Assembly: GCA_012800525.1 (NCBI GenBank)
Contig: JAAZJD010000021.1
Span: forward strand, 15,402-79,401
DNA from: Clostridiales bacterium
GTDB lineage: Bacteria; Bacillota; Clostridia; Christensenellales; DTU072
DNA: 64,000 bases
Direction: 5' to 3'
Below, piece after piece: positions 1,973-52,719 of the stretch; position 1 is the first letter of the stretch, and each line of letters opens with the position of its first letter. The position numbers and the translations under genes are program-made. The notes under the pieces are model-generated. The model was not told the DNA's origin. It saw only the letters and a list, made by a program, of their open reading frames with translations, and searched no databases.

Positions 1973-3451
1973 CTATGTGCTTTTTGCCTCATTATCCCCC
2001 ACGAGAGCATTGATATACAATGTTCCTTCTTTAATATAAAAACTAAAAAGCTCTTCTATTTCTTCATTTTCTACAAGTGGATTTTTATTGTATAATCTCA
2101 TTGAAAAAAGTGGGCAAGGACAACTTTCACGATGTGATGCAGGTGTATATTGAGAAACAACTTCGATCATAGTTATAGTTGCTGAATTGTTAATTTTTTC
2201 ATTTAAAATAGGAAATTGCGGTGAATTGAAGTTTTTAATTTCAGCTTCCATAATTATATAATTATCATTAAAAAGCACTGGTGTTGAATTATTTAAATCT
2301 AAGTCTATTTCTTTTAGAACATATGTGTTTTCAAAAGTTTCCATGGTAAAAGAAGCATTGTACTCCTTTCCTTTAAACCTAAAATTAGTATCTTTAGTGG
2401 CCTCATCAGCTTCAACATGGAAATCTGCTTGAAATGACTTTAATATCACATCATTTCCGCCAAAAACAGTTGCTTTAGCAATGTTTTTCACTTCAAACTG
2501 CAACCTTAAAGTAGCTGGAGGCATCGCATTTTCAACCACATTAGTTGCTATTTCAAATTCAGTTCTTCCTTCAGTTAAATTAATTCCAATAATACTTGAA
2601 ATCGCATCTTCGAAATCAATTATTTGTTGTTTTTGCGCTGGAGTAATGGGATAGTTAGTTGGATTTTGCTTAGCTAGACGAGAGTTTTGCGCAAGTTTTT
2701 TGAAAGTCTCTTTAATATCAAATGTGATATCATATGATCTAGTATAAAAATCATCGTTTTCCTCTCTATAGTATTCCCCTTTTCTATTTATTCCTCCAAC
2801 TAAATTTTCTGCCATAAACCTTGCAATATTATTAACGCTATCATTTATTTCATTTCGCATTGTTTTTGTGCTTGTGTTTTTATTTTTTAATGGAATAAAC
2901 TTTTTGTCACTCACAAATGGTATTACAAAAGAACTTTCTGAACCAAATTTAAAATCAAGCTTGTAATGATAATACAACACAGTTTTTTGATTGGGTTCCT
3001 CCCCTTCAATACGCTCTTCTATAAAAGGATTATCTTGAAAAAGAGTAAAAAACATTATTTCTTTAGAGTCTATGTATTCTGCTTTAAATGATATGTTGTT
3101 ATTTGTTGCATCATCTAAATCATTATTAAATATCAACGAAACTCGTAAATTTTTACCTTTAATATTTGCTTTAAAAGTTGCCTCAACTGAAACTTGCTTT
3201 TTTGTTGAAGAGACAGAATTAATTTTTTCTTCTGAAACATTATAAAATAAGTTGCCAAAACAAGCTGCTAGATCTTTTAAAATATTTTCATCTGTTAGAT
3301 GTGTTTGATTAATTTTTGTTTTAGGTATAGCATTTGATTTTGGTGGAACTTTAGGAGATGGTGCACTAGTAGCACAGCTAGCTGTAAAAATAGTTGATAA
3401 TAAAATCACTAAAACTAAAACAACAATAATTATTGGTTTTTGCTTTTTCAT
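1973..3451 (-). CDS. Putative lipoprotein (492 aa), unknown function
   Basis: N-terminus MKKQKPIIIVVLVLVILLSTIFTASCATSAPSPKVPPK: positive n-region, hydrophobic core, lipobox-like TASC, then a Pro/Lys-rich linker. No recognisable catalytic motif. Confidence 0.65.
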   Translation of the reverse strand: MKKQKPIIIVVLVLVILLSTIFTASCATSAPSPKVPPKSNAIPKTKINQTHLTDENILKDLAACFGNLFYNVSEEKINSVSSTKKQVSVEATFKANIKGKNLRVSLIFNNDLDDATNNNISFKAEYIDSKEIMFFTLFQDNPFIEERIEGEEPNQKTVLYYHYKLDFKFGSESSFVIPFVSDKKFIPLKNKNTSTKTMRNEINDSVNNIARFMAENLVGGINRKGEYYREENDDFYTRSYDITFDIKETFKKLAQNSRLAKQNPTNYPITPAQKQQIIDFEDAISSIIGINLTEGRTEFEIATNVVENAMPPATLRLQFEVKNIAKATVFGGNDVILKSFQADFHVEADEATKDTNFRFKGKEYNASFTMETFENTYVLKEIDLDLNNSTPVLFNDNYIIMEAEIKNFNSPQFPILNEKINNSATITMIEVVSQYTPASHRESCPCPLFSMRLYNKNPLVENEEIEELFSFYIKEGTLYINALVGDNEAKST

Positions 3452-3482
3452 AACATCAATCTCTCATCATTATAGGAAACTT

Positions 3483-5210
3483 TTAGCAATGACTTTTTAT
3501 AGCATGAGTTATAATTTTTTGTATCTCTAAAACTATATTGTCGATTGGAACATTAAATTTTTCTTTTGATTCTCTAAGTTGTATTTCTAGCTCATTTTTT
3601 TCTAAGAGCTTTTTGCTAACGACAACCCTAATAGGAATTCCCATTAAATCACAATCTGCAAACTTAAAACCAGGAGATACATCCCTATCATCAAGCAAAA
3701 CTTCAATCCCATGATCTTTTAAATTGTCATATATCTCTAAAGTTTTCGAATTAATATCCTCATCACTAAATCTAATTGGACATAAATATACATGCCAAGG
3801 AGCAATTGACATTGGCCAAATTAGTCCAAAATCATCGGATTTTTCTTCAGCTATTGAAGCTATTGCTCTGCCTACACCAATGCCATAGCACCCCATAATT
3901 GGATGGAATGTTTTCCCTGTTTTATCAAGAACATTCATATTCATGGTTTCGGTATATCTAGTACCTAATTGGAATATGTTGCCAATTTCAATACCATTTT
4001 CTATAGTTAATGGCGAGCCACATACAATGCATTTATCACCTTTTTGTACTTTTGCAATATCAAAAGTAGTATTGGCATAAAAATCCCTTCCCTCGCAAGC
4101 ATTTATCATATGATAAGCATCTTCATTTGCACCAACAACAACATTTGTAAGCCCTTTAACTGAATCGTCATACACCACAATTAAATTTTCATTTTCATTC
4201 AATCCAACAGGACCAATATTTCCAGCTACCAAAGCACTGTCTTGTAAAGATGCTGGTACAATGTCTTTTTTGACAACCTTCTTAAGCTTTGCTTCGTTAA
4301 TCTCTAAATCACCCCTAATAAAGCATAAAACATTTGTGTTTGCATCACCTTTTATATTAAAAACTACTGCCTTTAAAGTTTTTGTATTGTCTTTTAATTT
4401 TAAAAATTCAACAACTTCAGATATTTCTTTTGCTTCACCCGTATAAACTTTTTCAAGCGGCTTAAATTCTTCACTTCGAATTTTATCCCTTTTTGAAACT
4501 GCAACCTCCATATTAGATTTATATCCACAGTTTTTACATATAACAATACTATCTTCACCAATGGGAGTTAGCAACATATACTCATGAGCAACTTTTCCAC
4601 CCATCATTCCAGAGTCTGACTCAACGACAATAAAATTTTTCATTCCAATACGTTTAAATATTTTTATGTATGAATCATAGACTTTTTTATAATACTTTTC
4701 TAAATCTTCTTGAGTTTCATGAAATGAATAAGCATCTTTCATAGTAAACTCTCTTACTCTTATCAATCCACCTCTTGATCTAGCTTCATCTCTAAATTTT
4801 GTTTGTATTTGATAAATCATAAAAGGTAGTTGCTGATATGAAGAAACCGTATTTCGAGCCAAATGAACTGCAGCTTCTTCATGTGTCATTCCTAGAACAT
4901 TGTCTCTATTATTTCTATCTTTAAATCGCACAAGTTCAAGACCAATAGATTCATATCGTCCACTTTCATCTAGCAAATCTCTTGGAAGCACAACAGGAAA
5001 CAAGCATTCTTGTCCATCTATTAAATCCATTTCTTCTCTAATAATTGATTCAATTTTATTTGCAATTCTTTTAGCTGGCATAGCCAATGTCCAAATACCA
5101 TTTGAAACTTGCTTCATAAATCCAGCTCTAAGCATCAAAGCATGGCTTTTAAATTGAGCATCTGAAGGTGTTGTTTTCGATCTTTCGCCTACTAATCTTG
5201 AAATTAACAT
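3483..5210 (-). CDS. proS: Proline--tRNA ligase (bacterial type with INS editing domain)
   Basis: 575 aa. Class II aaRS motifs (FRDEARSRGGLIRVREFTMKDAYSFH; GCYGIGVGR). Length and layout match bacterial ProRS. The SD AAGGAG overlaps the stop codon of the upstream lipoprotein gene. Confidence 0.93.
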   Translation of the reverse strand: MLISRLVGERSKTTPSDAQFKSHALMLRAGFMKQVSNGIWTLAMPAKRIANKIESIIREEMDLIDGQECLFPVVLPRDLLDESGRYESIGLELVRFKDRNNRDNVLGMTHEEAAVHLARNTVSSYQQLPFMIYQIQTKFRDEARSRGGLIRVREFTMKDAYSFHETQEDLEKYYKKVYDSYIKIFKRIGMKNFIVVESDSGMMGGKVAHEYMLLTPIGEDSIVICKNCGYKSNMEVAVSKRDKIRSEEFKPLEKVYTGEAKEISEVVEFLKLKDNTKTLKAVVFNIKGDANTNVLCFIRGDLEINEAKLKKVVKKDIVPASLQDSALVAGNIGPVGLNENENLIVVYDDSVKGLTNVVVGANEDAYHMINACEGRDFYANTTFDIAKVQKGDKCIVCGSPLTIENGIEIGNIFQLGTRYTETMNMNVLDKTGKTFHPIMGCYGIGVGRAIASIAEEKSDDFGLIWPMSIAPWHVYLCPIRFSDEDINSKTLEIYDNLKDHGIEVLLDDRDVSPGFKFADCDLMGIPIRVVVSKKLLEKNELEIQLRESKEKFNVPIDNIVLEIQKIITHAIKSHC

Positions 5211-5219
5211 ACATGCTCC

Positions 5220-5642
5220 TTATTTCGCATAAACAGTCAAATCAAACTTTGTTTCAAAACCATTATAAGAAGCAGTTAATACAAATACTCCTTCAGTTGT
5301 AAACTTCATTTGCGAATCTAGCATATATATACCAGATTCATTAGGTTTAAACTTGTTATCACTTGTATCTAATTTAAACTTTACATTGTTATTGACACTA
5401 ACTGCTGCCATAGTATCAATTTTTCTAGAAGTTTTATCTGATAGATGTGCTGTTACTTCTATCTTAGAGATATCAAAGTTAGAGTCAACTTTAAACTTTG
5501 TGTCTGCAACTAATTTTGCTTCAATTCCAACTATAGTTGCTTTGCCTTCAATCTCATCTTTATTGTCAGTACAACCAACTAAAGCTATGGTCAAAAGTAT
5601 GATAATTAAAATGGTAAAAATTGTAATCTTTGTCTTTTTCAT
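5220..5642 (-). CDS. Small lipoprotein (140 aa), probably a single Ig-like beta-sandwich
   Basis: MKKTKITIFTILIIILLTIALVGCTDNK carries a canonical lipobox LVGC. The rest is beta-strand-patterned. SD AAAGGA lies upstream. Confidence 0.7.
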   Translation of the reverse strand: MKKTKITIFTILIIILLTIALVGCTDNKDEIEGKATIVGIEAKLVADTKFKVDSNFDISKIEVTAHLSDKTSRKIDTMAAVSVNNNVKFKLDTSDNKFKPNESGIYMLDSQMKFTTEGVFVLTASYNGFETKFDLTVYAK

Positions 5643-5795
5643 TTGTATGTCCTTTAAAATTTTATATTTATATGTCTAAATGTTATTACAGTTTTACTAA
5701 TATTGTCAATTTAAAGTGTATTAAGTCAAGAACTAGTTTTTATCAAAACCAATAAACTTTTTAAATTTACCCTACCTTCAAATTTATATGTAGTT

Positions 5796-7865
5796 TTATG
5801 AAAGCCAAGTTATATTTTTTTCCAAAACCCCAGTAAAACAATCCTCATCCCAGCCTATTGGCTTTTCAGTTTTTTTCCTATTTGTATTAATTTTCAACAA
5901 ATCACATCCTGAAAATGCATATCCGTCTATATGTGTTACTGTACTTGGGATCGAAAATCCATCCCCTTCTTCCATCGAAAATTTAATTGCTTTTAAGTTT
6001 CTACATCTACCAAAAGCCTCTGAGCCTATACTTGTAACAGTGGGTGGTAAAATTATAGTTTCCACTTCATTCACAATTTCCTTACCTTCAACTGAACCAA
6101 TAAATGCATCAGGAATTTCTGCTATGGTTACTTGTGATAAGTCTAAAGTGGCTCCACTAAAGCCCAAAAAAGCGCCAAAACCTATTTTGTTTACACTCGA
6201 AGGGAGAACTAGATTCGATGTTTTGTTATATGCAACTGATGTTGGACAAATTTCTTCAATCTCAACAGGAAAACTAGAATTAACCCCCAAATTTAACAAG
6301 CTTTTTCCTATAACTAAAGCATTGTTTGATATGGTATAATTAGCAGTACTCATGCCTTCTATGATAGCCAAATTTTTGCAATATGAAAAAATTGGGAAAT
6401 ATGAATCCCAACCCAATAATGTTTCGCCTTTTTGTGGGATATAACTTGAAGGAATATTTATTTTCTTTAAAGAATCACAATATGTAATAGCGCTCATTTC
6501 AATAGTAACAATACTGTTTGGTAAGAATAATTCTTCTAAATTTGAGCAATTCAAAATCGCAGTAGTTTTTAATGTCAAAGTATTCTTAGGTAAATATAAA
6601 GACACTAATGCAGTATTCTCATCAAATGTATTAGAATTGATAACTTTGACATTGGTTTCATTTAAATCTATTTTGGTTATAGATGAACATTTTGAAAATG
6701 CCCATTCGCCAATTGAATCTATACTACTTGGAAATTCTATCTCTTTAATTGCTCTATCTAATTCAAAGCAAGAATTCCCAATAGTTCTAACTCCTTCCTC
6801 AATTTTCACATTTTCTAAATATGACAAATTATAAAAAGCTCGAGCACCTATACTCTTTATTCCGCCATGTATGAGTATGTTTACTATCTCAATATCAACA
6901 CTATCAAAAGCACTTGCCGCTATTTCAACAACTGGTAAAGTTTCGCCATTTTGAGTATATTCATTTGGAAAAGATAGTGTTTGATATTTTTCTTTATTTG
7001 CCAATATATATGGTTTTGATTCTGGACGAAAACCTTTAACAATATATCCTGTTCCTTCAAAGTTTTTTTCATATTGAAGAGAATCTGTAACTGTTATCTC
7101 TTTTGCTTGAAGATTTATTATTATATCGCTTTGTATAACTATCCTAGCTTTGTTAGTAGTGTCATTGATTGTAATTTTCTCATTATTTGAAAAAGCATCA
7201 TGCAACCACATGCTATCCACTTGAGAAAAATCTAATGTAATTTCCGAGTAAGCAGTATATTCGCTTTGCTCTGGTTCAACATGAACAGCAGCAGCATTTT
7301 CTGTTTTACTGATTATAAAATTCCAATAAACATTGACATCTCTAAAAGCAAACTTAGACCAACTATTTGGCTTGTTTATCTCTCTACATCCCGTATACAA
7401 AACTAATTTTTCAGAAAATGCAAAGGCATCATTTTGAATATTGATATCTCTTTTTTCTAAATTTATTCTTTTTAATCCAGTGTTGGAAAAAGCTTTGTCG
7501 CCTATTTCTAAAAGTCCAATAGGTAAATTAATTGATTCTAATTTTTTACAACCACTAAAAGCTTCCTTTTCTATTGTTTTTATGTCATCTGGCAAATATA
7601 CTTTCTTAAGGTTCTTATATTCTTTAAATGCACCTTCCCCAATTCCTATTATTTTTCGATCTTTTTTGTTGTGATAAATTGTAATAGGAAAATTCAATTC
7701 TTCAATAGTCTTATACTTTTCACTCATTCCCATAATAATAAGTTCATCGCCTACTTCCTTGACAATAAAAATATCTTGTTTAGGTCTACAGCAAGCAGCT
7801 AAACTAATAATAAAAACTAAAATCAAAATACTAATTAAAATTATTAAACTTTTTTTTCTTAACAC
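5796..7865 (-). CDS. BspA-type leucine-rich-repeat surface lipoprotein (689 aa)
   Basis: GTG start. Signal plus lipobox (ISLAACC). Repeated units such as IGEGAFKEYKNLKKVYLPDDIKTIEKEAFSGCKKLESINLP, IGARAFYNLSYLENVKIEEGVRTIGNSCF and IGSEAFGRCRNLKAIKF are typical of the BspA-like LRR (LRR_5) family. Confidence 0.8.
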   Translation of the reverse strand: MLRKKSLIILISILILVFIISLAACCRPKQDIFIVKEVGDELIIMGMSEKYKTIEELNFPITIYHNKKDRKIIGIGEGAFKEYKNLKKVYLPDDIKTIEKEAFSGCKKLESINLPIGLLEIGDKAFSNTGLKRINLEKRDINIQNDAFAFSEKLVLYTGCREINKPNSWSKFAFRDVNVYWNFIISKTENAAAVHVEPEQSEYTAYSEITLDFSQVDSMWLHDAFSNNEKITINDTTNKARIVIQSDIIINLQAKEITVTDSLQYEKNFEGTGYIVKGFRPESKPYILANKEKYQTLSFPNEYTQNGETLPVVEIAASAFDSVDIEIVNILIHGGIKSIGARAFYNLSYLENVKIEEGVRTIGNSCFELDRAIKEIEFPSSIDSIGEWAFSKCSSITKIDLNETNVKVINSNTFDENTALVSLYLPKNTLTLKTTAILNCSNLEELFLPNSIVTIEMSAITYCDSLKKINIPSSYIPQKGETLLGWDSYFPIFSYCKNLAIIEGMSTANYTISNNALVIGKSLLNLGVNSSFPVEIEEICPTSVAYNKTSNLVLPSSVNKIGFGAFLGFSGATLDLSQVTIAEIPDAFIGSVEGKEIVNEVETIILPPTVTSIGSEAFGRCRNLKAIKFSMEEGDGFSIPSTVTHIDGYAFSGCDLLKINTNRKKTEKPIGWDEDCFTGVLEKNITWLS

Positions 7866-13578: not shown

Positions 13579-13652
13579 GTGGGTGTAGTTCAATGGTAGA
13601 ATGACAGCCTTCCAAGCTGTATACGTGGGTTCGATTCCCATCACCCGCTCCA
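13579..13652 (+). tRNA. tRNA-Gly (anticodon UCC)
   Basis: 74-nt cloverleaf. Acceptor GTGGGTG/CACCCGC, anticodon stem ACAGC/GCTGT with loop CT-TCC-AA, T-loop TTCGATT, encoded CCA. Confidence 0.93.
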
Positions 13653-13657
13653 ACCAT

Positions 13658-13734
13658 GGACCAGTAGCTCAGTAGGATAGAGCGACGGCCTTCTAAGCCG
13701 TAGGTCAGGGGTTCGAATCCCTTCTGGTTCGCCA
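13658..13734 (+). tRNA. tRNA-Arg (anticodon UCU)
   Basis: 77 nt. Acceptor GGACCAG/CTGGTTC, TAGCTCAGTAGGATAGAGC D-arm, anticodon loop CT-TCT-AA, GGTTCGAATCC T-arm, encoded CCA. Confidence 0.93.
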
Positions 13735-13766
13735 AAATGAAACTTTATAATTTAAACATATAATAC

Positions 13767-13843
13767 GGTGGGTATAGCTCAGTTGGAAGAGCGCAAGATT
13801 GTGGCTCTTGAGGCCATGGGTTCAAGCCCCATTACTCACCCCA
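13767..13843 (+). tRNA. tRNA-His (anticodon GUG)
   Basis: 77 nt including the His-specific extra G(-1) opposite C73. Anticodon loop TT-GTG-GC, GGTTCAAGCCC T-arm, encoded CCA. Confidence 0.92.
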
Positions 13844-13849
13844 ATATGC

Positions 13850-13924
13850 AGGGGTGTCGCCAAGCGGTAAGGCATCAGACTTTGACTCTGACATTCGTAG
13901 GTTCAAATCCTGCCGCCCCTGCCA
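13850..13924 (+). tRNA. tRNA-Gln (anticodon UUG)
   Basis: 75 nt. Acceptor AGGGGTG/CGCCCCT, TCGCCAAGCGGTAAGGC D-arm typical of Gln, anticodon stem TCAGA/TCTGA with loop CT-TTG-AC, encoded CCA. Confidence 0.92.
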
Positions 13925-13934
13925 TATTATTTAT

Positions 13935-14010
13935 GACTCATTAGCTCAGTAGGTAGAGCACCTGACTTTTAATCAGGTTGTCCGGCGTTCGATCCGCCGA
14001 TGGGTCACCA
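13935..14010 (+). tRNA. tRNA-Lys (anticodon UUU)
   Basis: 76 nt. Acceptor GACTCAT/ATGGGTC, anticodon stem CCTGA/TCAGG with loop CT-TTT-AA, GTTCGATCC T-arm, encoded CCA. Confidence 0.93.
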
Positions 14011-14017
14011 AAACTTT

Positions 14018-14101
14018 GCGGCCGTGGCGGAACTGGCAGACGCGCTAGACTTAGGATCTAGTCTCTTAGAGGTGGGAGTTCAAGTCTCTTCGGCCGCACC
14101 A
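14018..14101 (+). tRNA. tRNA-Leu (anticodon UAG), class II with long variable arm
   Basis: 84 nt. Acceptor GCGGCCG/CGGCCGC, anticodon stem CTAGA/TCTAG with loop CT-TAG-GA, long variable arm, GTTCAAGTC T-loop, encoded CCA. Confidence 0.92.
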
Positions 14102-14168
14102 GCTATGGGAAATAGCATAAAGCCAAATCATTACTTTAAGGTAATGGTGCGAAAACAAATTAAAATTT

Positions 14169-14244
<76 letters not shown>

Positions 14245-14248
14245 ATGC

Positions 14249-14324
14249 GCACCATTAGCTCAGATGGTAGAGCAATTGACTCTTAATCAATGGGTCCAGG
14301 GTTCGAGTCCCTGATGGTGTACCA
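14249..14324 (+). tRNA. tRNA-Lys (anticodon CUU)
   Basis: 76 nt. Acceptor GCACCAT/ATGGTGT, anticodon stem ATTGA/TCAAT with loop CT-CTT-AA, GGTTCGAGTCC T-arm, encoded CCA. Confidence 0.92.
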
Positions 14325-14376: not shown

Positions 14377-14404
14377 TAAAAAAACTCCACTTGGGAGTTT
14401 TTTG
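14377..14404. terminator. Bidirectional rho-independent terminator (end of the tRNA operon and end of the giant-gene operon)
   Basis: An A-tract, then stem ACTCC/GGAGT extended by A:T pairs (14379-14388 / 14394-14403) with a 5-nt loop, then a T-tract. It lies between convergent transcription units. Confidence 0.7.
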
Positions 14405-14425: not shown

Positions 14426-15115
14426 TTATGGGTCAGGTTCAGTGACTAAAATTCCAGATAAATCCAGATTATCACAATTCATAAATATGCTTGGTAAAAT
14501 GGCTGGCGTCCCCCTAATTTTTCGCTCAGTATCTATTTCTTCTAATTTTTCACAGGCGGCAAAAGCTAATTCACCAAACTCTATATCATTAATTCCTTTT
14601 GCTGTAATTTTCTTTAAATGTATACAACCACTAAATACACCACCTTCAATTCTTTCAAGGCTTGAATTTAGTATCAACTCCTCAATTATCAAATTGTTCT
14701 TTAAAAGTTGCTTGCTTATATCTCCAGTATATTCAACTCCATTTTGAAACATTAAGGCATTTGCTCCAGTGGGTGGCGCCATGATTTTAATAACATCACC
14801 TAGATATTCTACTTCATTTACAGTTACTGAATATTGTGCTGGAATTTCAAGCTCATCAACAATGTGATCATAGCCAACTGCAGCAAAATCTTCAATACTT
14901 TCCACATCATTAGTTTGCTCTCCAGTTGCATCTAAGCCAACAAAAATTATCCCTTTTAGAGATTCATTCCAATATTCGACATGATCTGGTGGACTAATCT
15001 CAACACTTAAGCTTGCTTGAGATTGTTGTTGCCAATAAGCATAGCTAGCAGAAATTGATAAAGAAACCGCAAATATAAATATTATAATAAAAATAACTGG
15101 TAATATTTTTTTCAT
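14426..15115 (-). CDS. Small exported BspA-type LRR protein with a TasA/SipW-like N-terminal signal (4th gene of the giant operon)
   Basis: N-terminus MKKILPVIFIIIFIFAVSLSISASYAYWQQQSQASLSV. The C-terminal half has LRR_5-like units (IEGGVFSGCIHLKKITAKGINDIEFGELAFAACEKLEEI). Start is either the ATG at 15115 or the GTG at 15127, which overlaps the upstream stop (TAGTG). Confidence 0.7.
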   Translation of the reverse strand: MKKILPVIFIIIFIFAVSLSISASYAYWQQQSQASLSVEISPPDHVEYWNESLKGIIFVGLDATGEQTNDVESIEDFAAVGYDHIVDELEIPAQYSVTVNEVEYLGDVIKIMAPPTGANALMFQNGVEYTGDISKQLLKNNLIIEELILNSSLERIEGGVFSGCIHLKKITAKGINDIEFGELAFAACEKLEEIDTERKIRGTPAILPSIFMNCDNLDLSGILVTEPDP

Positions 15116-15126
15116 AAGGCACACCA

Positions 15127-17280
15127 CTATGGAATATCTTCAAATGTTGCATCAAGAGACAAAACAAAAGTTTCTCCCTTTAAGGTTGGGTCAAAATCCT
15201 CATCAAACACAGCAATGTACATCGCAATATCTAATAAAAATGTAGAGTCCCTACCCATTATTAATTTTTCCCTAAATACAATTGGCTTTTTGTTTGCATC
15301 ACTTGGCAAAACTTCTGCTGAGATTACATGATCTTTATACGTTGTTAAGTCTTTATAGGCATATTCACCTATATACAAAAAAACATTTTCAACATAATCT
15401 CCCCCAGAGTCATTTTTTATATAACTTGCTGCTAACGGATGTGCCGTGGCACTGCCATTTTGGTATAGAACAATGTCACCATCTGCAGGAGTATATGCCG
15501 TAAAAACTCTAAGCCTATTATTTCGAAGAACAACAATATTTTCTAACAATAAATATACTTTTGTTAATAAATACTTGCCTTTATAAGTCTCAAGACTTGT
15601 TATGTCAGTATCATAAGATAAAAAATCTCCATCCATAAATATAATATGATTCCCTGGATTTGAAGCATCAAAATCAATGGACTTATCTATAAATCTAGTT
15701 AAAATTCCATCTCTTTTGTATACAATATGATCAAGATCAACAATAATATCTGATATCGCTGCCCTATCATTATCAACAATTGGATCTCCATTTGCATCAA
15801 CGCCTTCTCCTGGAGAAATTTCATCAGTTTGATTATGTAAAAACAATAACTCATCCCCCACTACAGGAGTATATTTGTTAAAAGAACTATGTAAAAAATG
15901 ACCATTTCTAAAATAACCAATTGTCGAATTTTTTACAAAAAATGTATTCAATAACGACTGTGATACTGGCAAATCTCTTTGAGTTCCATCATTAAAAATA
16001 TAACAAAAGTTCAACTGCTCACTAACAACATTTGTACTTGATTTATCAAAATATTCATGAGTTAACACAGATGTTTCTATACCTGAAGCGGGTGTTACAG
16101 TCTCACCATTATCATATAAAACATTTCTTTGTGTAAGTTGCACATCTTTTTTAATATATATATCATTACCAATTTCTTCAAGATACTCAGAATAAAGTGT
16201 TTGTGGTGCACCAGGGTAATAAATTGCATCCCAGTCGGAAAGGCTAGGAGTATCTCCAACTTTAGTTATCATTAAATCACCGCTGTTTTTATGTTTATAT
16301 ACCCTTTCAGTTGCAAGGGGGGCTGCTGCACCTGGTACCAAAACATTTCTAACTCTATAAGTATCTCCATCAAAACTTATAGGGCTATCTTTTTTTACAA
16401 ACCTAAATGCATGAACGGTTATTCCATTTAAAGTTTGTTGAGTCAGGCAATCGGGGTTATCAAAGTAATCTTTACCGCTTGTGCTATCTCTATAACACAT
16501 AAAATTTTCGGTATATGCCATAAGATTAATACCGCCAGATACATTATGATAGGCCGAAGCGGAAGCTAAATTTACTCTATACTCATTTCCAACTAATGAA
16601 TAACAACTTTTGTGATGAGCGCCGAAATTTATTGTTTTATTCTCTTCACTAAATATTAATTGATCTGTAATTTTATAATGACGATTCCTCCCTAAGCTAT
16701 CAGCAATCAACACCGAATCCTCTCTTAAAAACTGCCCTCTTCTTAAAACTGGTTCGCTTTCTGAAATAAATATACCTTTATCATGCTCCTTAAAACCTAT
16801 ACTTAAGGCCATTTCACCTGTTTTACTGAAATCTCTATTAGTTTTACCACCTACTCCAGCCTCTTTTAGCTTAATACTTTGTTCAATTTTTATAGATTGG
16901 TATGCATTTTCATAAGATTCCAAACCACTCCAATAACTCAAGTCAACTTTGAAATTAACTTGGCCAGCAGCCTTTTCAACATACTCAGGTAATATTCCAT
17001 CTCTTGGAATCACATCATAATTGTAATAATCTAAATCAAAGCCATCTTGAAAATATGATCTTTTTAGTGTAGCTGGATAAAGCTTTCCTTCTTGAGCACT
17101 TTGAGAAACTTCCGATTCAAACTGCAAAATTTCAAAACCAGTAGCGGGGAAAATATGACTCCTTTCAAGCACAACTTGTTGAACAAACCAAGAATATGAA
17201 AGTGCACTAAGAGATAGTGCCACAGTTAAGACTGTTGCAATTATAATTACTACTAATTTTTTCTTGCTTGTGTTTAACAT
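15127..17280 (-). CDS. Exported or membrane-anchored protein of unknown function (717 aa) with a TasA/SipW-like N-terminus (3rd gene of the operon)
   Basis: N-terminus MLNTSKKKLVVIIIATVLTVALSLSALSYSWFVQQVVLERS. SD AGGTGA precedes the ATG. No motif I recognise in the remaining ~680 aa. Confidence 0.7.
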   Translation of the reverse strand: MLNTSKKKLVVIIIATVLTVALSLSALSYSWFVQQVVLERSHIFPATGFEILQFESEVSQSAQEGKLYPATLKRSYFQDGFDLDYYNYDVIPRDGILPEYVEKAAGQVNFKVDLSYWSGLESYENAYQSIKIEQSIKLKEAGVGGKTNRDFSKTGEMALSIGFKEHDKGIFISESEPVLRRGQFLREDSVLIADSLGRNRHYKITDQLIFSEENKTINFGAHHKSCYSLVGNEYRVNLASASAYHNVSGGINLMAYTENFMCYRDSTSGKDYFDNPDCLTQQTLNGITVHAFRFVKKDSPISFDGDTYRVRNVLVPGAAAPLATERVYKHKNSGDLMITKVGDTPSLSDWDAIYYPGAPQTLYSEYLEEIGNDIYIKKDVQLTQRNVLYDNGETVTPASGIETSVLTHEYFDKSSTNVVSEQLNFCYIFNDGTQRDLPVSQSLLNTFFVKNSTIGYFRNGHFLHSSFNKYTPVVGDELLFLHNQTDEISPGEGVDANGDPIVDNDRAAISDIIVDLDHIVYKRDGILTRFIDKSIDFDASNPGNHIIFMDGDFLSYDTDITSLETYKGKYLLTKVYLLLENIVVLRNNRLRVFTAYTPADGDIVLYQNGSATAHPLAASYIKNDSGGDYVENVFLYIGEYAYKDLTTYKDHVISAEVLPSDANKKPIVFREKLIMGRDSTFLLDIAMYIAVFDEDFDPTLKGETFVLSLDATFEDIP

Positions 17281-17332
17281 ATATCACCTAGTTTGTATTT
17301 TTATATTCTACCACAATATCAACCAACTTTCA

Positions 17333-18130
17333 TTACTCTTCAATAACTGTATAGATAAACGCGATATGGAAATTAGTATGCATATATTGAGGATGGCTAT
17401 ACGTAAAATCATTATAATTAAAATATTTGGGAGTATGATCTGGGTTTTTTTGCATAGGTATCCAAGATTCAATGCTTACATTTGGGTCACCCCCATCTGC
17501 AAGATACTCCGTATAATCTTCTAGAGCCCTAACATTATCTTCTTGCCATATGCAATAATGTGACTCTCGCAAGAAAATAATAGACATATTTAGTGTATTG
17601 TCTCCATTTTCTAACGGCAACAAAACTTCTGGAGACCCACTAGGGACAAAAACTCCATTTTCCGATTCTAAAACAAATACTCCTTCACTATTTCTTTTGT
17701 AAACTTTTGTGGGATCAGAAGGAAGAGTAATCCTAATAGTAAAATTCTGATCTACATCTGAAGTCGTTACTAAATATTTATCTTCTTCGCTTAATTCATG
17801 TCTTGTTATTATAAGGTGCGTTAAATCAATTTTTAGTTTTGGTGTACCTGCTGAAGCTGATATATTAATGCTAATTTGAATTTCAGCACTATATGGAGCA
17901 TCAGGTTCAGTTACATAAGCATTCCCCGTTTCTCCTGAATAATCCGTATCAGTAATGCTTTCCCAGGTTGCTGTGGCCTGAGTGTCCATAGCTGACACTA
18001 GTGTAGCATTTTGAGCGGTAGCAATAGCATTATTTGCGTACCAAGACAAGGTAAACGCTGTCGTAGCGATTACAATTATCATCAACACGTAAATTAATGT
18101 TAAAAATTTAAACCTTAATGACTTTTTCAC
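17333..18130 (-). CDS. Exported protein of unknown function (265 aa) with a TasA/SipW-like N-terminus (2nd gene of the operon)
   Basis: GTG start 8 nt after AAGGAG and 24 nt after the giant ORF stop. N-terminus MKKSLRFKFLTLIYVLMIIVIATTAFTLSWYANNAIATAQNATLVSA. Size is similar to TasA-family subunits, but no further similarity is visible by eye. Confidence 0.7.
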   Translation of the reverse strand: MKKSLRFKFLTLIYVLMIIVIATTAFTLSWYANNAIATAQNATLVSAMDTQATATWESITDTDYSGETGNAYVTEPDAPYSAEIQISINISASAGTPKLKIDLTHLIITRHELSEEDKYLVTTSDVDQNFTIRITLPSDPTKVYKRNSEGVFVLESENGVFVPSGSPEVLLPLENGDNTLNMSIIFLRESHYCIWQEDNVRALEDYTEYLADGGDPNVSIESWIPMQKNPDHTPKYFNYNDFTYSHPQYMHTNFHIAFIYTVIEE

Positions 18131-18154
18131 TTCTATTGCTCCTTAGTTGTAAAG

Positions 18155-21100
18155 TTAAATTGATGGCACTTCATCTCCTATAGGCTCTACGGTCGGATTT
18201 TTACTATATGCAGTATTAGGATAGATATACTTAAATAGGTTTGTATTTATAGATAAGGTTCTACTATAGATATTCTTTCCATTAGAATCAAATCCTGCAC
18301 CATAAAACTCTAAATCTAATTGCACTTCGCTCGCTTTAATGTGATGTGGTATTATAAAGGTCCTTGCTAGTTTAAAGCTTGCATATGGATATGCTCTTAT
18401 TAGTGAAAATTGTGTATAGAAAGATAGAATAAATGGCTCCATCAAAGTTCCTTTTCTTGTTCCAGCACCTTCACTTGGACCTGTATATGCTCTATTTAAT
18501 ACCCAATTATAAATTATTGAGGAAACCACAGTATCGACATTCATAATTGCATCATAGGTTTGTGCACTATCAATTTCAATTCTAGCACCATTGACAACAA
18601 CGCCATCTTTGAATATAACATTAGAAGTAATACTGGTGTTGCCTTTTCCAACAACTTCATTAAATATTGGATTAACTACCTCACCGCTAGGCACATTGTC
18701 AAGTTTTGCTTCAATAAAGCTACCCACGCTTGTGATTGTTTGTTCTGCTTGATTTTCAATTATTGTTTCTCCAATTAGCGCTCCTACAGTAATATTACCC
18801 TCTGTTTTTGCAAATATTTTTGATACTGAATAACTATTAGTAATATCTCCTCTTATTAATAAAGCAACTAAACCACCTACTGTTACTGCCTTGGTCTCTG
18901 CATGAGCACTAATTACACCTTCAAAGCTTGAATTTTCAATAATACCGCCATCTACTTGTACTGCAATTGGAGCAACATATGAACTATTGTTAGCTACTAC
19001 CGTTGTTTTTCTTAAATTCATTCCTGAAATTTTACCAGTTAATATATTAAACATCGCAGTATTTTGATTAGTTCCACTTGCTATAATGGTAAGACCGATT
19101 ATGTTAAATCCATTTCCGTAACAATTACCAGCAAAGCTTGAAATAGTACGTAACACTATGGGTCTACCTTTATATGAAGCGATTATATCAGATAATTGAT
19201 AATATGAAGGATGTCTACCAACTTGATAGTTATCCAATGTTGCTTTTAGGTTTTCGATATCATAAGAAAGATGATACAAATCTTCGCTCGAATCTAATTT
19301 GAACAAATAATTTTTATCTGCATCTTCAACATCTTGTAATCTAACTCCTGTTATTTGCAACACAGGTGCACGATACATATAATTGTGTTTATTTCTAGCA
19401 TTAGTTATTCTTATCCCTAATTTTGTTGAATCATTATTTTCATAATCTTTTGTACCTGCAAATCTCGTGTAAACATTAGAACTCATAGCATCATCAAGCC
19501 ATGCATTTTTCATTTCGAATGATGACGCAGATAAACTATCTGCAGCTAGTAGAGCTAAAAATTCAGCATTTGTCATTGGATACTCATCATCTGCTATCAT
19601 ACCAATACTGTTAATAGTTACATTTTTAGCATTTCCATTCTTTATAGAATATAAGTCTTGTAAAGCATAATTATACTCTAAAGAAAGCCATCTCTCATGA
19701 ATTGTATACGTTGCATCAGCTGTATCAACCGATACAATATAGTTAGTTACATTTTCCGCATCATAGGTTTTTAGTCCAGCTGCCACCATAATTTGATACT
19801 CCCCAGCATCTCTAGCATATTCACCTTCAACTGGATTAAGTTGGTAATCATTACCTCTAATATATATTCTTCCACTAAAATAATCATCTTCATAAATACC
19901 ATTAATTATTGCATTATCATTTGCTCCATCTTTTATAGATGCAATTACTTGAAGTCCCTCTGTTGTATTTATATGATTAGCCGAATTTAGCACTAAATCA
20001 AACCCCTCTCCATCATATCCTTTTACAATATTATCTTTAGTCAAAGTTATTGGTCTAGGTTTAACAACAAGAGGATTATTTTGATTTGAAGTAGGCTCAT
20101 ATATCTCGAAATTTTGCACTTCAGATTCATCATCAATGTCAAACAAATAATAATTTTGATGTGTGAATGCATTAAATACTATTTTTGAAAGATTTGCAGT
20201 AATATTTTTCTTTAATGTATCAACATAATCAGGATCGGTTCCTGTTCTTAAATATGAATTGATTGTTTCAATGCTAATTGTTACATTCTCTACATCACTT
20301 TCTATGATGTTATCAATTTCCCATAAATAACTTGAACCACCTTGTATTTGTGTGCTTCTATAAACATGTGCAATGCTTATTGGCATACCTTCAGCAGAAC
20401 CTGCTGTAGTAGTTGTTAATGTTGTTGATGTTGACACCAATGAGAATAAAGTAGAGCCATTATAGTATTTGTATAAATCTTGTGTTGTACCTTGTATAAT
20501 AGTTAATTGACGCTTAATTATTTCCCAATCTCTAAACCTGCTTGTATCTAATGAAGAATCTCCTGGTAATTTATAATTATAGTCGAACAAGTAACCACTT
20601 TGAGGTGTACCGCTAGACCAAATATTTCCATCTGTTAAAATGCCATCCTCTTCGACATCTCCACCTTTAATTCTTGTGATAGTTGATCTATATGTACCTG
20701 CATTTTTTTCTAAGTTTGCAGTTAAAACAATAGGAACTGTAACATCTAATAACCCATATCCTTGTGGTTGTACACCATGTTCATTTCCATCATAAACAAA
20801 AGGGTTTGTATCAATATACTCAACAGTTTGACCATTCCTAAACCACTTAACTAATAAATTTAATTTTTCAATTCTCGTTTGAACTGGAGAAAGTCTTAAT
20901 GTATAGTTTGTTGAATAATAATATAAATTGTCTTCATCTGCATCAAACTCTGCACTTATGCTATAATTACCAGCCATTCTAAACTCACCAGCAACTCCAC
21001 CATTAAATACATAGTCATTTACTGTTGTACTATAAGTATATTCACTTGAGCTTTTAGTTGTATCTTCATGAATTAACTTATTAGGGTCGATAAATAGATT

Positions 21101-24100
21101 AATCTTGTTAACTAGCACTCCTTCAACGAATATTCCATCTGTTCCAACAGAATTGATTTCTGCTTCTAAAGCACTATATTTATTTGTGCCATCAAAAATA
21201 ATGGAAGCTTGGTCTAGTGCTTTTTTACCTTGAACAGGAAGAGTAATATACCAAAGGACATCTCTAGTAATTTTCTTAATTTGAAGTTGTGCGATATCGC
21301 TAAATGAAGTATAATTTCCAGTTGCAGGTATTGTTGCTCTTAAGAAATAAAAGCCTGCATTACGAGCTGTTGTGCTTGTAAATGTATCATAATCATACCT
21401 ATCAGAATTTTCATGTACCCCACTATCATATACTACAACCTCATAAGTTATTACACCGCCTTCACCAGTATGAGTTAAAACTTTCCAATAACCCGTAGTC
21501 GATGGTACTAAATACTCATAAACAACGCTTGGAGTAGTTGAGTCAGGATAATAAATATTTTGGAATATATCATTAGGAGTTTCCTCATCTTGAGTTAAAT
21601 ACAAAAATACATATTCGCCTTTATAATCCATAGTTTTATCATAATATACAAACTCATCTGAAATGTCTCCCTTAGTAATAGTAACTGTTATAAAGCCCGA
21701 AATGCCATTGTAGTTGTCCGTTGCTAAAACAGTTGCTGTAATCGTATATTCACCCACATTCTTAACAGTATTACCACCTGCAAATTGAGAATCTCCTCCA
21801 CTATAAATTACTTGAATTTCTATAGTGGTATCATATTGATAATATATTGCTGTTTTTGTCGAACTAAATGCATTATCAGCACTTGTTGCAACTACATAAT
21901 ATGAATGCTCTTCGCCTTCCCAATAGCTAAATGTATCAGAACCATTAAAGAAAATATTATTAATATCAGCCTTTTCAACAATAATCTCTTTTACGGCATC
22001 ATTTAACGAATAGTTAAGCCTCATTTCAAAACCATCGCCATACACATGTGTAATTGAAGCAGTTAATGTATAAGTTCCTGCATTTTTAATTTGAGCTACT
22101 ACTTCACCACCAGTTCTTATAGTTATAGTTAGTGTCATTTTATTGTCAACGACTCCAGAAATAGCTGTATCTGTTCCAACAACTACAATTTTTGCATTAA
22201 TATTAGCACCTTGTTGAGCACCTATATAAACATACTTTAATACTTCCTCAACTGGAATTGGTAAATTAGCCCATTCAACATTTACTGATTTTGCAATAAT
22301 CTCTAAATCCTTTTCACTTTCAGCAAGTATAATATTATAATTGTTAACATATGGTTCGCCACCAGCATCAGTTGATGCACTGTTTATTGTTGCTTTTCCA
22401 GTATATTTTCCAACATTCCTAAATGCCAATTCATCACTGGTTCCATATTCATAATATTTAACAATTAAGCTTTCTTTTCCTTCATTTTCATCTGTTCTAT
22501 CATCACCAACTAACTCAAAATATGCTGTAGTAACATTTGTTGTTCCTGAATATACAATTTGAGTTTCGCCCCAAGTTACTGAAGCTGATCTTTTTGTTAT
22601 AGATACATTTGTTGTTACATTATCTATTGCGTAGTTTCCTGCATCATCTCCAGACAATGTAAACGTGATATAATTTGCAGCATTTACATTTTTGCTATTG
22701 AAGTAAGCATCAACATACAATGTGTCACCTGTATATATTCCAGCAAATGGCGTTGTAACAAAGCTTGTAATTCTATCATAGAAATCATTTCCGTTATATA
22801 CTTTTGTCCAAGTTGTTAAAGTTGGTTGTAGCTTATGAGCAGTAATTACCCCAGTCGTAACTTGAGATACGGTATAGTTAATGGAAGTCTCTGATGTTAC
22901 CTTGTCTAAGACTGCAAATGAAATTGTCTTATTAGTACCAACATTTTTATTTTGATATGTCGCAATTACATCAAACAATGTAGACTCATTAACATTGCTT
23001 TCATTGGTTACAAAACCTGAAACTGTAAAGGCATCATATTCAGTTGTTGAATCATAAACCTTTGTCCAATTAGAAGGTGAAGATGTTGATGTTACAGTAA
23101 GAGCTTTTTTAGTAATTACTAAATTTGCCTTATTTGCATTAGGACTTGTTGTATTAGGCCATGCGTTATAATTATCTCCACTACCGTGTGCATTTGTATC
23201 AACAGCAATTGAAGCTGTAATTGTATATGTGCCAGCATCTTTTTGTCCATTAAATGCACTTGGAGTTGGATTTTCAGGCGTGATAAAGGTATAAGTTACT
23301 TTAGCCGTATCTGTGCCTAATAGATTTATTGAGGTTGCATTGTTAGTATTTGAGACCGTACTACTTTCTGATACACCAATATATTGTGTATATCCATTAT
23401 ATTCATGTGTTCTCCCAACCATATACATGTTAATATCTGCTTTATCCATAAAGAGATATTGTATTTGCTCACTGCCAGTAAAGTCATAGTTGCTATGAGC
23501 AGCATCATTAACCCTAGCTTCGAATTTATAATATCCAGCAGAGAAGAAATCTCCAATTAAAATATATTGACTTGGATCACTACCACGAGAAATATCAAAA
23601 TCAATATTTCTCGTAGTTTGATCTACGGTTTGTTCATATTGAGCCATTTCATAATATGCATTCAGTTGATTTTTCTGACTAGCTCCGTTATATGTATAGT
23701 CTATTGGATCTCCATTTATATCATCAAACCCTACCCAAACTATTGTTGCTGTATAAGCTTTAATAGTTAAAATTGCTGTATATTCTTGAGTTATGTAGTT
23801 TTTGTTTTCAAGAGTTGCTTTAATATAGTATGTTCCTTTATTTCTAGCGCCATTAAATGCGACATTGTACACATCAGGTGTATTGGAATACATATATGTT
23901 ATGGCAGCGCTGTCTATTGTTGCAGCATTTTTGTATGGTCTAATGTCTAAAGAAGTTACTTTAGATGTTCCTAAAGAAGTTTCAGTACTTGTTGTTACTA
24001 CATTTAAGAAGTGTGTTGCACCATCGAAAGTTAATGAATCATTACCAGTTAAGCTATGCAAGTAAAATACTGTAGACTCATCAATATTGTTGTACATTGT

Positions 24101-51994: not shown

Positions 51995-52038
51995 CAGCGT
52001 TCCTTGGAAAATTGATTATTCTTCTCTTTATAGTTAAT

Positions 52039-52067
52039 ATTATAATATATTAATAAAGAGTATGCAA
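52039..52067 (-). promoter_or_regulatory. Candidate sigma-70 promoter of the giant-gene operon
   Basis: Minus strand: TTGCAT (52067-52062), 17-nt spacer, TATAAT (52044-52039), about 45 nt upstream of the TTG start. AT-rich DNA produces such matches by chance, so confidence is moderate. Confidence 0.5.
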
Positions 52068-52719
52068 AAACTTTCTACCAATTTAATAACCATTTGAAGC
52101 AAAATTCATAATATTTCACAAATAAAACACATTGGAGCAAAAAAGCTAAATAAATTAAAAGTTTATCTTAGAAAATCAATACTTTTGAACACATAAACAA
52201 GCGATGTGAACTTTAGTAACTCTTAGATTAAGTGTAACTTTTGAGTCAGCCCTCGGAAAGTTTGTCAAAGTAAATGCAACTTTCAAAGTTTTTTATTTTT
52301 GTGATGAAAAAAAAATGAGAAAATGTAAGATTCGACAAAAATAAATTTCAAGACTGATATTGATAAAACAAAAGAAAAACATTCGATAACACATTTTAAA
52401 TATCAGGTTGGCAACTAAAATTTTCTAGCGGTTAATACGTTTTTACGATAAGAAAGAGCATGTAAATAGTAAATAGGAAACTGGTGATCTTTTTTATGTT
52501 ATGAATAATATATAGGAAAGTAAACCGTAAAATTTAAATTTATTCATTGTTAGTCATTTCAAAAGATTAAATTGAAAATAAACACATTGATTCTTTTTTA
52601 GATTTAAAACTGCTATGTGGCAGTATATGACAGAATTTGTAGCTATAGATACATAATTTGTAAGAATTATATAAATCCAATTAAAAGTAAGGCTTAAAGG
52701 CAAAAACTTGTATCTTGTG

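Follow-up and report, generated by a model that had tools for sequence, protein, structure and literature searches.

In the window analyzed here, the whole 64,000-nucleotide (nt) stretch of contig JAAZJD010000021.1 from a Clostridiales bacterium (GCA_012800525.1), three consecutive genes follow a giant gene and, judging from their sequences, form a conserved accessory module within a cassette built around a giant adhesin. The three products, called here P1, P2, and P3, appear to be non-homologous exported proteins that carry one specialized N-terminal design under purifying selection. The overall best explanation, to which we assign a probability of roughly 0.4, is that this design would be a shared specialized signal cut by a SipW-like peptidase encoded elsewhere in the genome, and that the proteins would act together with the giant protein. 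Outside a small clade of uncultured, Christensenellales-like anaerobic-digester Clostridia, the cassette was not found.

Pairwise BLAST among the three window proteins gave nothing significant, and when the three family profiles are compared with each other, the alignment covers just the first ~33 residues (P1-P2, E 5.5e-6 with 86% probability; P1-P3, 6e-4; P3-P2, 3e-3). Apart from this segment, the three proteins are, by these comparisons, unrelated to one another. The segment itself is well defined among 26 aligned N-termini of the three families, coming from about 10 related lineages. Numbering positions from a putative cleavage site, Ser/Thr at P-3, Ala/Ser/Gly at P-1, and Trp/Tyr/Phe at P+2 are found in 26/26, a hydrophobic residue occupies P-2 in 25/26 (aromatic in 19), and Trp is present at P+1 in 19/26. 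Also, small residues tend to alternate upstream of this site (P-5 in 18/26 and P-8 in 20/26). The complete design comprises a Lys/Arg-rich start, a very hydrophobic core of ~14 residues, and a Ser/Thr/Ala-rich stretch of 7-9 residues ending in [ST]-hydrophobic-[ASG], after which Trp or another aromatic residue at P+1 and a further aromatic residue at P+2 are observed. The initial annotation had claimed that the three N-termini are built alike; the strings that it quoted for the 265-, 717-, and 233-amino acid (aa) proteins are exact, and the likeness is real, being conserved across the lineages mentioned.

A scan for a basic start, a hydrophobic run, and the motif over all open reading frames (ORFs) of at least 100 aa in the window and 11 related loci marked module proteins only, and the same rule applied to six further loci marked module proteins too. 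The other secreted proteins of the window are lipoproteins or, as is the case for the giant protein, have an N-terminus without the motif. The similarity of the three N-termini exceeds chance, because the profile alignment is confined to the first ~33 residues and the scan for the design finds module proteins only. Moreover, the segment is better conserved than what follows it: in P1, it is 96% identical to the orthologue of locus L007, against 72% for the rest of the protein, with synonymous change at the usual rate, and in P2, the corresponding identities are 82% for the segment and 55% for the remainder, the synonymous rate being likewise usual. An incidental likeness, due to generic signal-peptide composition or old paralogy and with no joint function with the giant gene, would agree with the lack of significant BLAST matches and with the inflation of profile scores by hydrophobic segments. 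Nonetheless, three non-homologous families retain the five-position pattern across ~10 lineages, even where identity to the window proteins falls to about 21-26%, it is seen in no other scanned ORF, the window's other secreted proteins included, and the trio always adjoins a homologous giant gene. This explanation is therefore disfavored, and we consider it very improbable.

A comparison with the SipW-dependent signals of TasA, TapA, CalY, and BsaA reveals the same general organization, with an N-terminal segment of ~27-30 residues, an uncharged run of ~21 residues, and a site at which P-3 is [ST], P-2 is bulky and either hydrophobic or aromatic, P-1 is small, and P+2 is aromatic. The core cleavage motif T-x-A/x-F (small P-3 and P-1, aromatic P+2) is present in all 26 N-termini with the geometry of TasA, being the uncharged run of 21-24 residues, versus 21 in TasA, and the predicted cut at residue 25-31, versus 27. 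Also, in SipW-dependent systems the signal is more conserved than the mature protein, and several co-transcribed substrates have one signal (BsaA/B/C and TapA/TasA). In the TasA family, signal identities are 61-93% and body identities 35-45%, and P1 and P2 show the same excess conservation of the signal. The NCBIfam model matched by most of the N-termini is TIGR04088, the hidden Markov model (HMM) of the SipW-dependent-type signal peptide (6/26 at E<=1, best E 7.7e-4). Against its curated cut-off of 19 bits, and with TasA as a control at 41.6 bits, P3 scores 17.2 bits as a full protein, in both its 233- and 229-aa forms, and 19.6 bits as an isolated N-terminus.

Several observations weigh against this assignment. 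P3 is only about at the cut-off of TIGR04088, with 13.2 bits for its orthologue, and P1 and P2 give no match even at E<=10. The hydrophobic core is much more hydrophobic than that of TasA (Kyte-Doolittle 3.05 versus 2.02, p = 3e-9). Neither the TasA-type GGG before the site, and with it the Gly-rich turn, nor the F-[NST]-D after the site occurs in the 26 N-termini, as compared with 22 TasA/CalY members; instead, Trp is found at P+1, and Asn/Gln/Ser/Arg come after the aromatic pair. Whereas known systems keep sipW in the operon (tapA-sipW-tasA and sipW-bsaABC; PMC7395162), no sipW is seen in the operon of the module or nearby: the signal peptidase motifs SGSMxP or SMxPT (ER-type, i.e., endoplasmic reticulum-type, or P-type) are in no ORF of at least 100 aa of the window or of loci L001-L035, and no S24/S26 Pfam domain is present in the 10 kb beyond either window end. 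A lipobox-like Cys lies just before the motif in the P3 orthologues of L022 (L033 being the same sequence) and L024, as AVGC/ETYAVW and LFSC/KTRANW, respectively, and would leave the motif T-x-A-x-W in the mature protein. These two kinds of orthologue end in Pro/Glu-rich tails (PEPEPEP).

The proteins beyond the signal do not resemble TasA either. In hhalign, alignments of P1, the P2 core, and P3 compared with the 22-member TasA/CalY alignment reach probabilities of 4.2%, 3.8%, and 0.2%, which indicates no TasA homology of the bodies, and PF12389 (Peptidase_M73, TasA/camelysin) gives no match at E<=10. The TasA/camelysin fiber subunits and the module proteins are alike in being small, secreted, and probably beta-rich, with a conserved segment directly after the signal (the donor strand in TasA), but polymerization is known for neither P1, P2, nor P3. 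The earlier proposal of SipW-type signals is thus sustained for the core motif, the length, and the signal conservation, and not for the HMM in P1 and P2, the flanking GGG and F-[NST]-D elements, or the bodies. The HMM scoring that had been suggested leaves P3 on both sides of the cut-off, above it when isolated and below it at full length, and the statement that the window holds no sipW-like gene agrees with the absence of signal peptidase motifs from its ORFs.

Nearly as likely as SipW-like cleavage is that the segments are uncleaved signal anchors, where the aromatic residues at P+1 and P+2 would prevent cleavage or sit at the membrane interface, and a membrane-proximal complex of the three anchored proteins would hold or present the giant protein. 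The uncharged run is long enough to span a membrane and, as noted, very hydrophobic, and FliL-like type II signal anchors have the same arrangement, a hydrophobic run of ~21-24 residues after a basic start. In this case, FliL-type models for uncleaved anchors match weakly as many N-termini as TIGR04088 does (6/26), which is a further point against the SipW assignment. The absence of a peptidase gene from all the loci and the reported blocking of the P-type signal peptidase by aromatic P2' residues (PMC10269814) would fit an anchor as well, and low-confidence AlphaFold models draw one continuous helix through the motif. Moreover, the P3 orthologues of L022/L033 and L024 appear to have exchanged the anchor for a lipobox while keeping T-x-A-x-W, which argues that P3 is membrane-tethered. 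On the other hand, the lipobox may be incidental, because the P3 orthologue of L034, a close relative of L022, is without it. Also, the strongly hydrophobic core covers only ~14 residues, and the strict small residues at P-3 and P-1, the alternating small residues upstream, and the invariant aromatic pair separate these segments from FliL-like anchors; the small residues suit a peptidase groove and a plain anchor needs none of them. The conservation of the hydrophobic segment was dropped as an argument for a retained anchor, the TasA signal being equally over-conserved.

If the segments are cleaved, the housekeeping P-type signal peptidase could be the enzyme, the three being then ordinary Sec signal peptides and the aromatic residues belonging to the mature N-terminus, for example to an assembly strand. 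The tripartite n/h/c layout obeying the -3/-1 rule, the lack of sipW in cis in all of the ~10 lineages, and the scores of P1 and P2 below the TIGR04088 cut-off would be in accordance with this. However, an aromatic P2' residue and the Trp at substrate position P2 of TasA hinder LepB, TasA being processed by the ER-type SipW, and an aromatic P2' is found in 0/143 verified LepB substrates (PMC10269814), whereas the equivalent P+2 is aromatic in every module N-terminus. A signal region more conserved than the bodies would also be unusual for generic signal peptides, and we regard housekeeping cleavage as unlikely.

Two further types of N-terminal signal were rejected. A lipoprotein signal was discarded for the three window proteins, which have no Cys in the right place (lipobox [LVI][ASTVI][GAS]-C), and a type IV pilin-like (class III) signal was discarded as well, since no G/[FM]xxxE is present in the 26 N-termini and the motif follows the hydrophobic segment instead of preceding it.

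For the favored SipW-like processing, the following sequence of events can be proposed. P1, P2, and P3 would leave the cell through Sec and be cleaved behind the small residue at P-1. Cleavage there is favored because a strict -3/-1 rule and alternating small residues suit a substrate that lies as an extended strand in the groove of a peptidase. The cut would most likely be made by a SipW-like (ER-type) peptidase encoded elsewhere in the genome, an enzyme of this type being favored because of the aromatic P2 and P2' residues, reported to block LepB on TasA. The three proteins would have in this way one processing or sorting step in common, and cleavage would generate similar aromatic N-termini, WYANN.. 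in P1, WFVQQ.. in P2, and YWQQQ.. in P3. Through these termini, the proteins would assemble at the cell surface, both among themselves and with the conserved C-terminal region of the giant protein, and P3 would add a leucine-rich repeat (LRR) binding surface. A role of the accessory proteins as fiber, cap, or tether, as put forward in the initial annotation, is pure inference. A more specific model, which we consider quite unlikely as it stands, is a sortase-independent assembly or tethering of the giant adhesin: the three proteins would be trimmed by an ER-type peptidase at a TasA-like site, and their aromatic N-terminal strands would plug into a partner, either each other or the giant C-terminal domain, to make a base or cap complex by strand complementation.

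The association of the trio with the giant gene is conserved. In every locus with enough flank, the trio adjoins a homologous giant gene, so that the synteny test proposed in the initial annotation speaks for that annotation. About 10 lineages preserve the order giant -> P1 -> P2 -> P3 (LRR_5), their junctions being tight or overlapping. This order is observed in L007 and L017, where P2 is 51% identical to that of the window, in L011, in L018-L020, L030, and L031, in L021 and L032, in L022 and L033, in L024, which has a short P2, and in L034; L035 leaves its contig within P2. A rearranged layout is present in L023 and apparently in L012, where the pair P1 -> P2 is convergent with the series giant -> a 1245-aa protein bearing a membrane anchor at its C-terminus -> P3. 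The genes of this layout are still adjacent; linkage thus survives rearrangement, and an extra partner appears. All the carriers are Christensenellales or other Clostridia genomes from anaerobic-digester metagenomes, and identical proteins are found on anaerobic-digester and biogas metagenome contigs and on a 1.7-Mb contig of GCA_050951625.1. One 'Christensenellaceae' metagenome-assembled genome (binchicken_co154_75) holds two module copies on separate contigs, L018 and L021; in L021, only 111 aa of the P1 ORF are left, whereas it is intact (243 aa) in the near-identical metagenome contig L032. The JGI metagenome 3300002174 (L005, L034, and L035) contains a second, divergent module-bearing species, with a P2 25% identical, in the same digester sample as the window organism.

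Regarding the proteins themselves, P1 and P2 belong to families that are, from the searches made here, rare and undescribed. Both are annotated in databases as 'hypothetical protein' and stay without a match in Pfam or NCBIfam when thresholds are permissive, and the P1 and P2-core family profiles give no significant match against Protein Data Bank (PDB) sequences. Word-indexed homology searches with P1 and P2 gave close relatives only, and the short P2-core family needed an exhaustive HMMER search. The P1 family spans 234-388 aa with invariant W30, Y64, G66, G69, D77, P79, and Y80 (Y-x-G-E-T-G ... D-A-P-Y). For P2, the exhaustive search over 1.84 billion cluster representatives found just 11 proteins at E<=1e-3, none with a Pfam or NCBIfam assignment; related loci were sought with an alignment of four sequences, the 11 relatives together having no sufficiently conserved stretch. 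The long forms among these relatives have 747-808 aa and the short forms 217-281 aa. P2 consists of a small conserved core split by an insertion of ~470 aa, because the short homologues match only its first ~180 and last ~45 residues. The insertion carries G-D-x-[ILV]-x-[YF] repeats, in 4-13 units spaced ~55-65 aa apart.

P3 carries in its residues 137-221 a BspA-type LRR region (LRR_5, PF13306; 36 bits versus a cut-off of 27.7, E 7.6e-9), which confirms the LRR domain predicted for the last protein, and its orthologues likewise carry LRR_5. NCBI names P3 'leucine-rich repeat protein', and IMG names it 'predicted ribosomally synthesized peptide with SipW-like signal peptide'. Although the LRR_5 region is bona fide, P3 differs from other BspA-type LRR proteins in being short (~200-245 aa), in occurring always with P1, P2, and the giant gene, and in having the special N-terminus of the module. 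The AlphaFold models were of low confidence, with a predicted local distance difference test (pLDDT) score of 57 for P1 and 52 for a P2-core homologue, and were discarded as evidence; with them, Foldseek against the PDB gave only generic beta-sandwich matches with template modeling (TM) scores <0.3, and no TasA.

The giant protein presents an N-terminal signal or anchor, one Listeria-Bacteroides repeat, a long repetitive body, and a conserved C-terminal part of ~1300 aa. Pfam scans detect only one Flg_new repeat near the N-terminus, and nothing in the final 1500 aa or in 1500 aa taken from the middle. The last 1300 aa align with the C-termini of the module-adjoining giant proteins in L007, L011, L019, L022, L023, and L024, from 68% down to 24% identity; this is the part conserved across all module-adjoining giant proteins, and it has no Pfam match. 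It looks like a repetitive Gly-rich region of beta-helix type and is the obvious candidate for the place where the accessory proteins would dock. Listeria-Bacteroides repeats in large Clostridia proteins have been mentioned before (10.1101/2023.11.21.568195). The four proteins were rejected as sortase substrates, no LPXTG plus hydrophobic tail being present at their C-termini (...FIYTVIEE, ...ATFEDIP, and ...VTEPDP, and ...GDEVPSI in the giant protein). A stretch of ~725 nt without a long ORF lies upstream of the listed TTG start of the giant gene.

As a small gene set tied to one very large surface protein, the module is comparable to the accessory systems of giant adhesins, such as aSec/SecA2-Y2 for serine-rich repeat proteins, type 1 secretion for giant RTX adhesins, and sortase for LPXTG proteins. 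Unlike them, it includes no ATPase, translocon, sortase, or LPXTG, and its accessory proteins are themselves exported and without an enzyme signature. No description of this module was found in literature searches. The giant gene is of a type already known, and the weak likeness of P3 to TIGR04088 is already reflected in the IMG label. What appears to be new is the recognition that three unrelated proteins have one signal variant in common, that P1 and P2 define undescribed families, and that a giant-adhesin cassette without a peptidase in cis has the trio as its fixed accessory module.

Little is known about the export, retention, and presentation in Gram-positive bacteria of surface proteins of >10,000 residues that have neither LPXTG nor other known anchors. 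Here, a compact four-gene cassette recurs across lineages, with two families outside Pfam, NCBIfam, and the PDB and with one sharply defined sorting signal in common. If the site is indeed of the SipW-type substrate kind, the substrate range of ER-type bacterial signal peptidases would extend past TasA-like fibers, and such substrates need not be encoded beside the peptidase. If, instead, the segment stays uncleaved as an anchor, it would represent a naturally occurring signal peptide that resists cleavage. In both cases, the motif offers an easy handle with which to search for the module. The immediate practical impact is modest because the bacteria are uncultured digester organisms.

The gene block has the layout described in the initial annotation (Table 1), with three genes on the strand of the giant ORF, 24 nt between the giant-gene TAA and the P1 GTG, 52 nt between P1 and P2, and an overlap or an 11-nt gap between P2 and P3. 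In the last junction, the P3 GTG overlaps the P2 TAG (TAGTG), and an ATG is located 12 nt further on. This ATG is the more likely P3 start because the orthologues begin with MKK, a GGTG precedes it by 6 nt, and the 229-aa form is the one called in one NCBI record. It is very likely, from the arrangement of the genes, that the giant gene, P1, P2, and P3 are co-transcribed; co-transcription with translational coupling is the simplest reading because the junctions are tight, being of 1-12 nt or overlapping in relatives.

The P1-P2 gap holds a promoter-like site with an extended -10 element, TGGTAGAAT, and the AGGTGA before the P2 ATG. The element is kept as TGTGATAAT in L007/L017, from the species with a P2 51% identical, and it may be an internal promoter, placed at 17305-17333; in distant relatives, the gap is 1-8 nt instead of 52 nt. 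The number of internal terminator-like and promoter-like matches in the block is not above shuffle expectation, and no convincing terminator is found within it, the sole internal match being weak. As had been proposed, a terminator is seen only past the last gene, where a hairpin with a 10-bp stem between an A-run and a T-run (-10.2 kcal/mol) closes the block and could act in both directions.

Table 1. Coordinates of the features of the gene block and its surroundings in the window, and of the features cited from related loci
Feature	Position	Strand	Details
Giant gene	18155-51994	(-)	11,279-aa ORF
Stretch without long ORF	51995-52719		upstream of giant gene
Giant conserved C-terminal part	18155-22000		~1300 aa
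P1 ribosome-binding site	18139-18144	(-)	AAGGAG, inside the giant-P1 gap, 8 nt before GTG
P1	17333-18130	(-)	265 aa; GTG start
P1 signal-like segment	18044-18130	(-)	residues 1-29
P1 motif	18038-18052		TLS/WY, residues 27-31, split between S and W
P1-P2 gap	17281-17332	(-)	52 nt
P2	15127-17280	(-)	717 aa; ATG start
P2 signal-like segment	17191-17280	(-)	residues 1-30
P2 motif	17185-17199		SYS/WF, residues 28-32
P3	14426-15127	(-)	233 aa from GTG, or 229 aa from ATG at 15115
P3 signal-like segment	15038-15115	(-)	residues 1-26 (MKK numbering)
P3 motif	15032-15046		SYA/YW, residues 24-28
P3 LRR_5 region	14465-14719	(-)	PF13306 match
Terminator-like hairpin	14379-14403	strand-neutral	10-bp stem
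Eight tRNA genes	13579-14324	(+)	Gly, Arg, His, Gln, Lys, Leu, Gly, Lys
LRR_5 lipoprotein	5796-7865	(-)	689 aa
Small lipoprotein	5220-5642	(-)	no known family
Small lipoprotein	1973-3451	(-)	no known family
P3 orthologue, L022	12579-13274		lipobox-like Cys
P3 orthologue, L024	10846-11580		lipobox-like Cys
Region of the extended -10-like element, L007	9935-10000		
Rearranged layout, L023	9215-20693		

Besides the module, a second LRR_5 protein, with a lipoprotein signal, is encoded in the window close to two small lipoproteins, all three within 1973-7865 and none with the N-terminal motif of the module. Finally, the eight tRNA genes converge on the end of the block, and the hairpin region is common to both.

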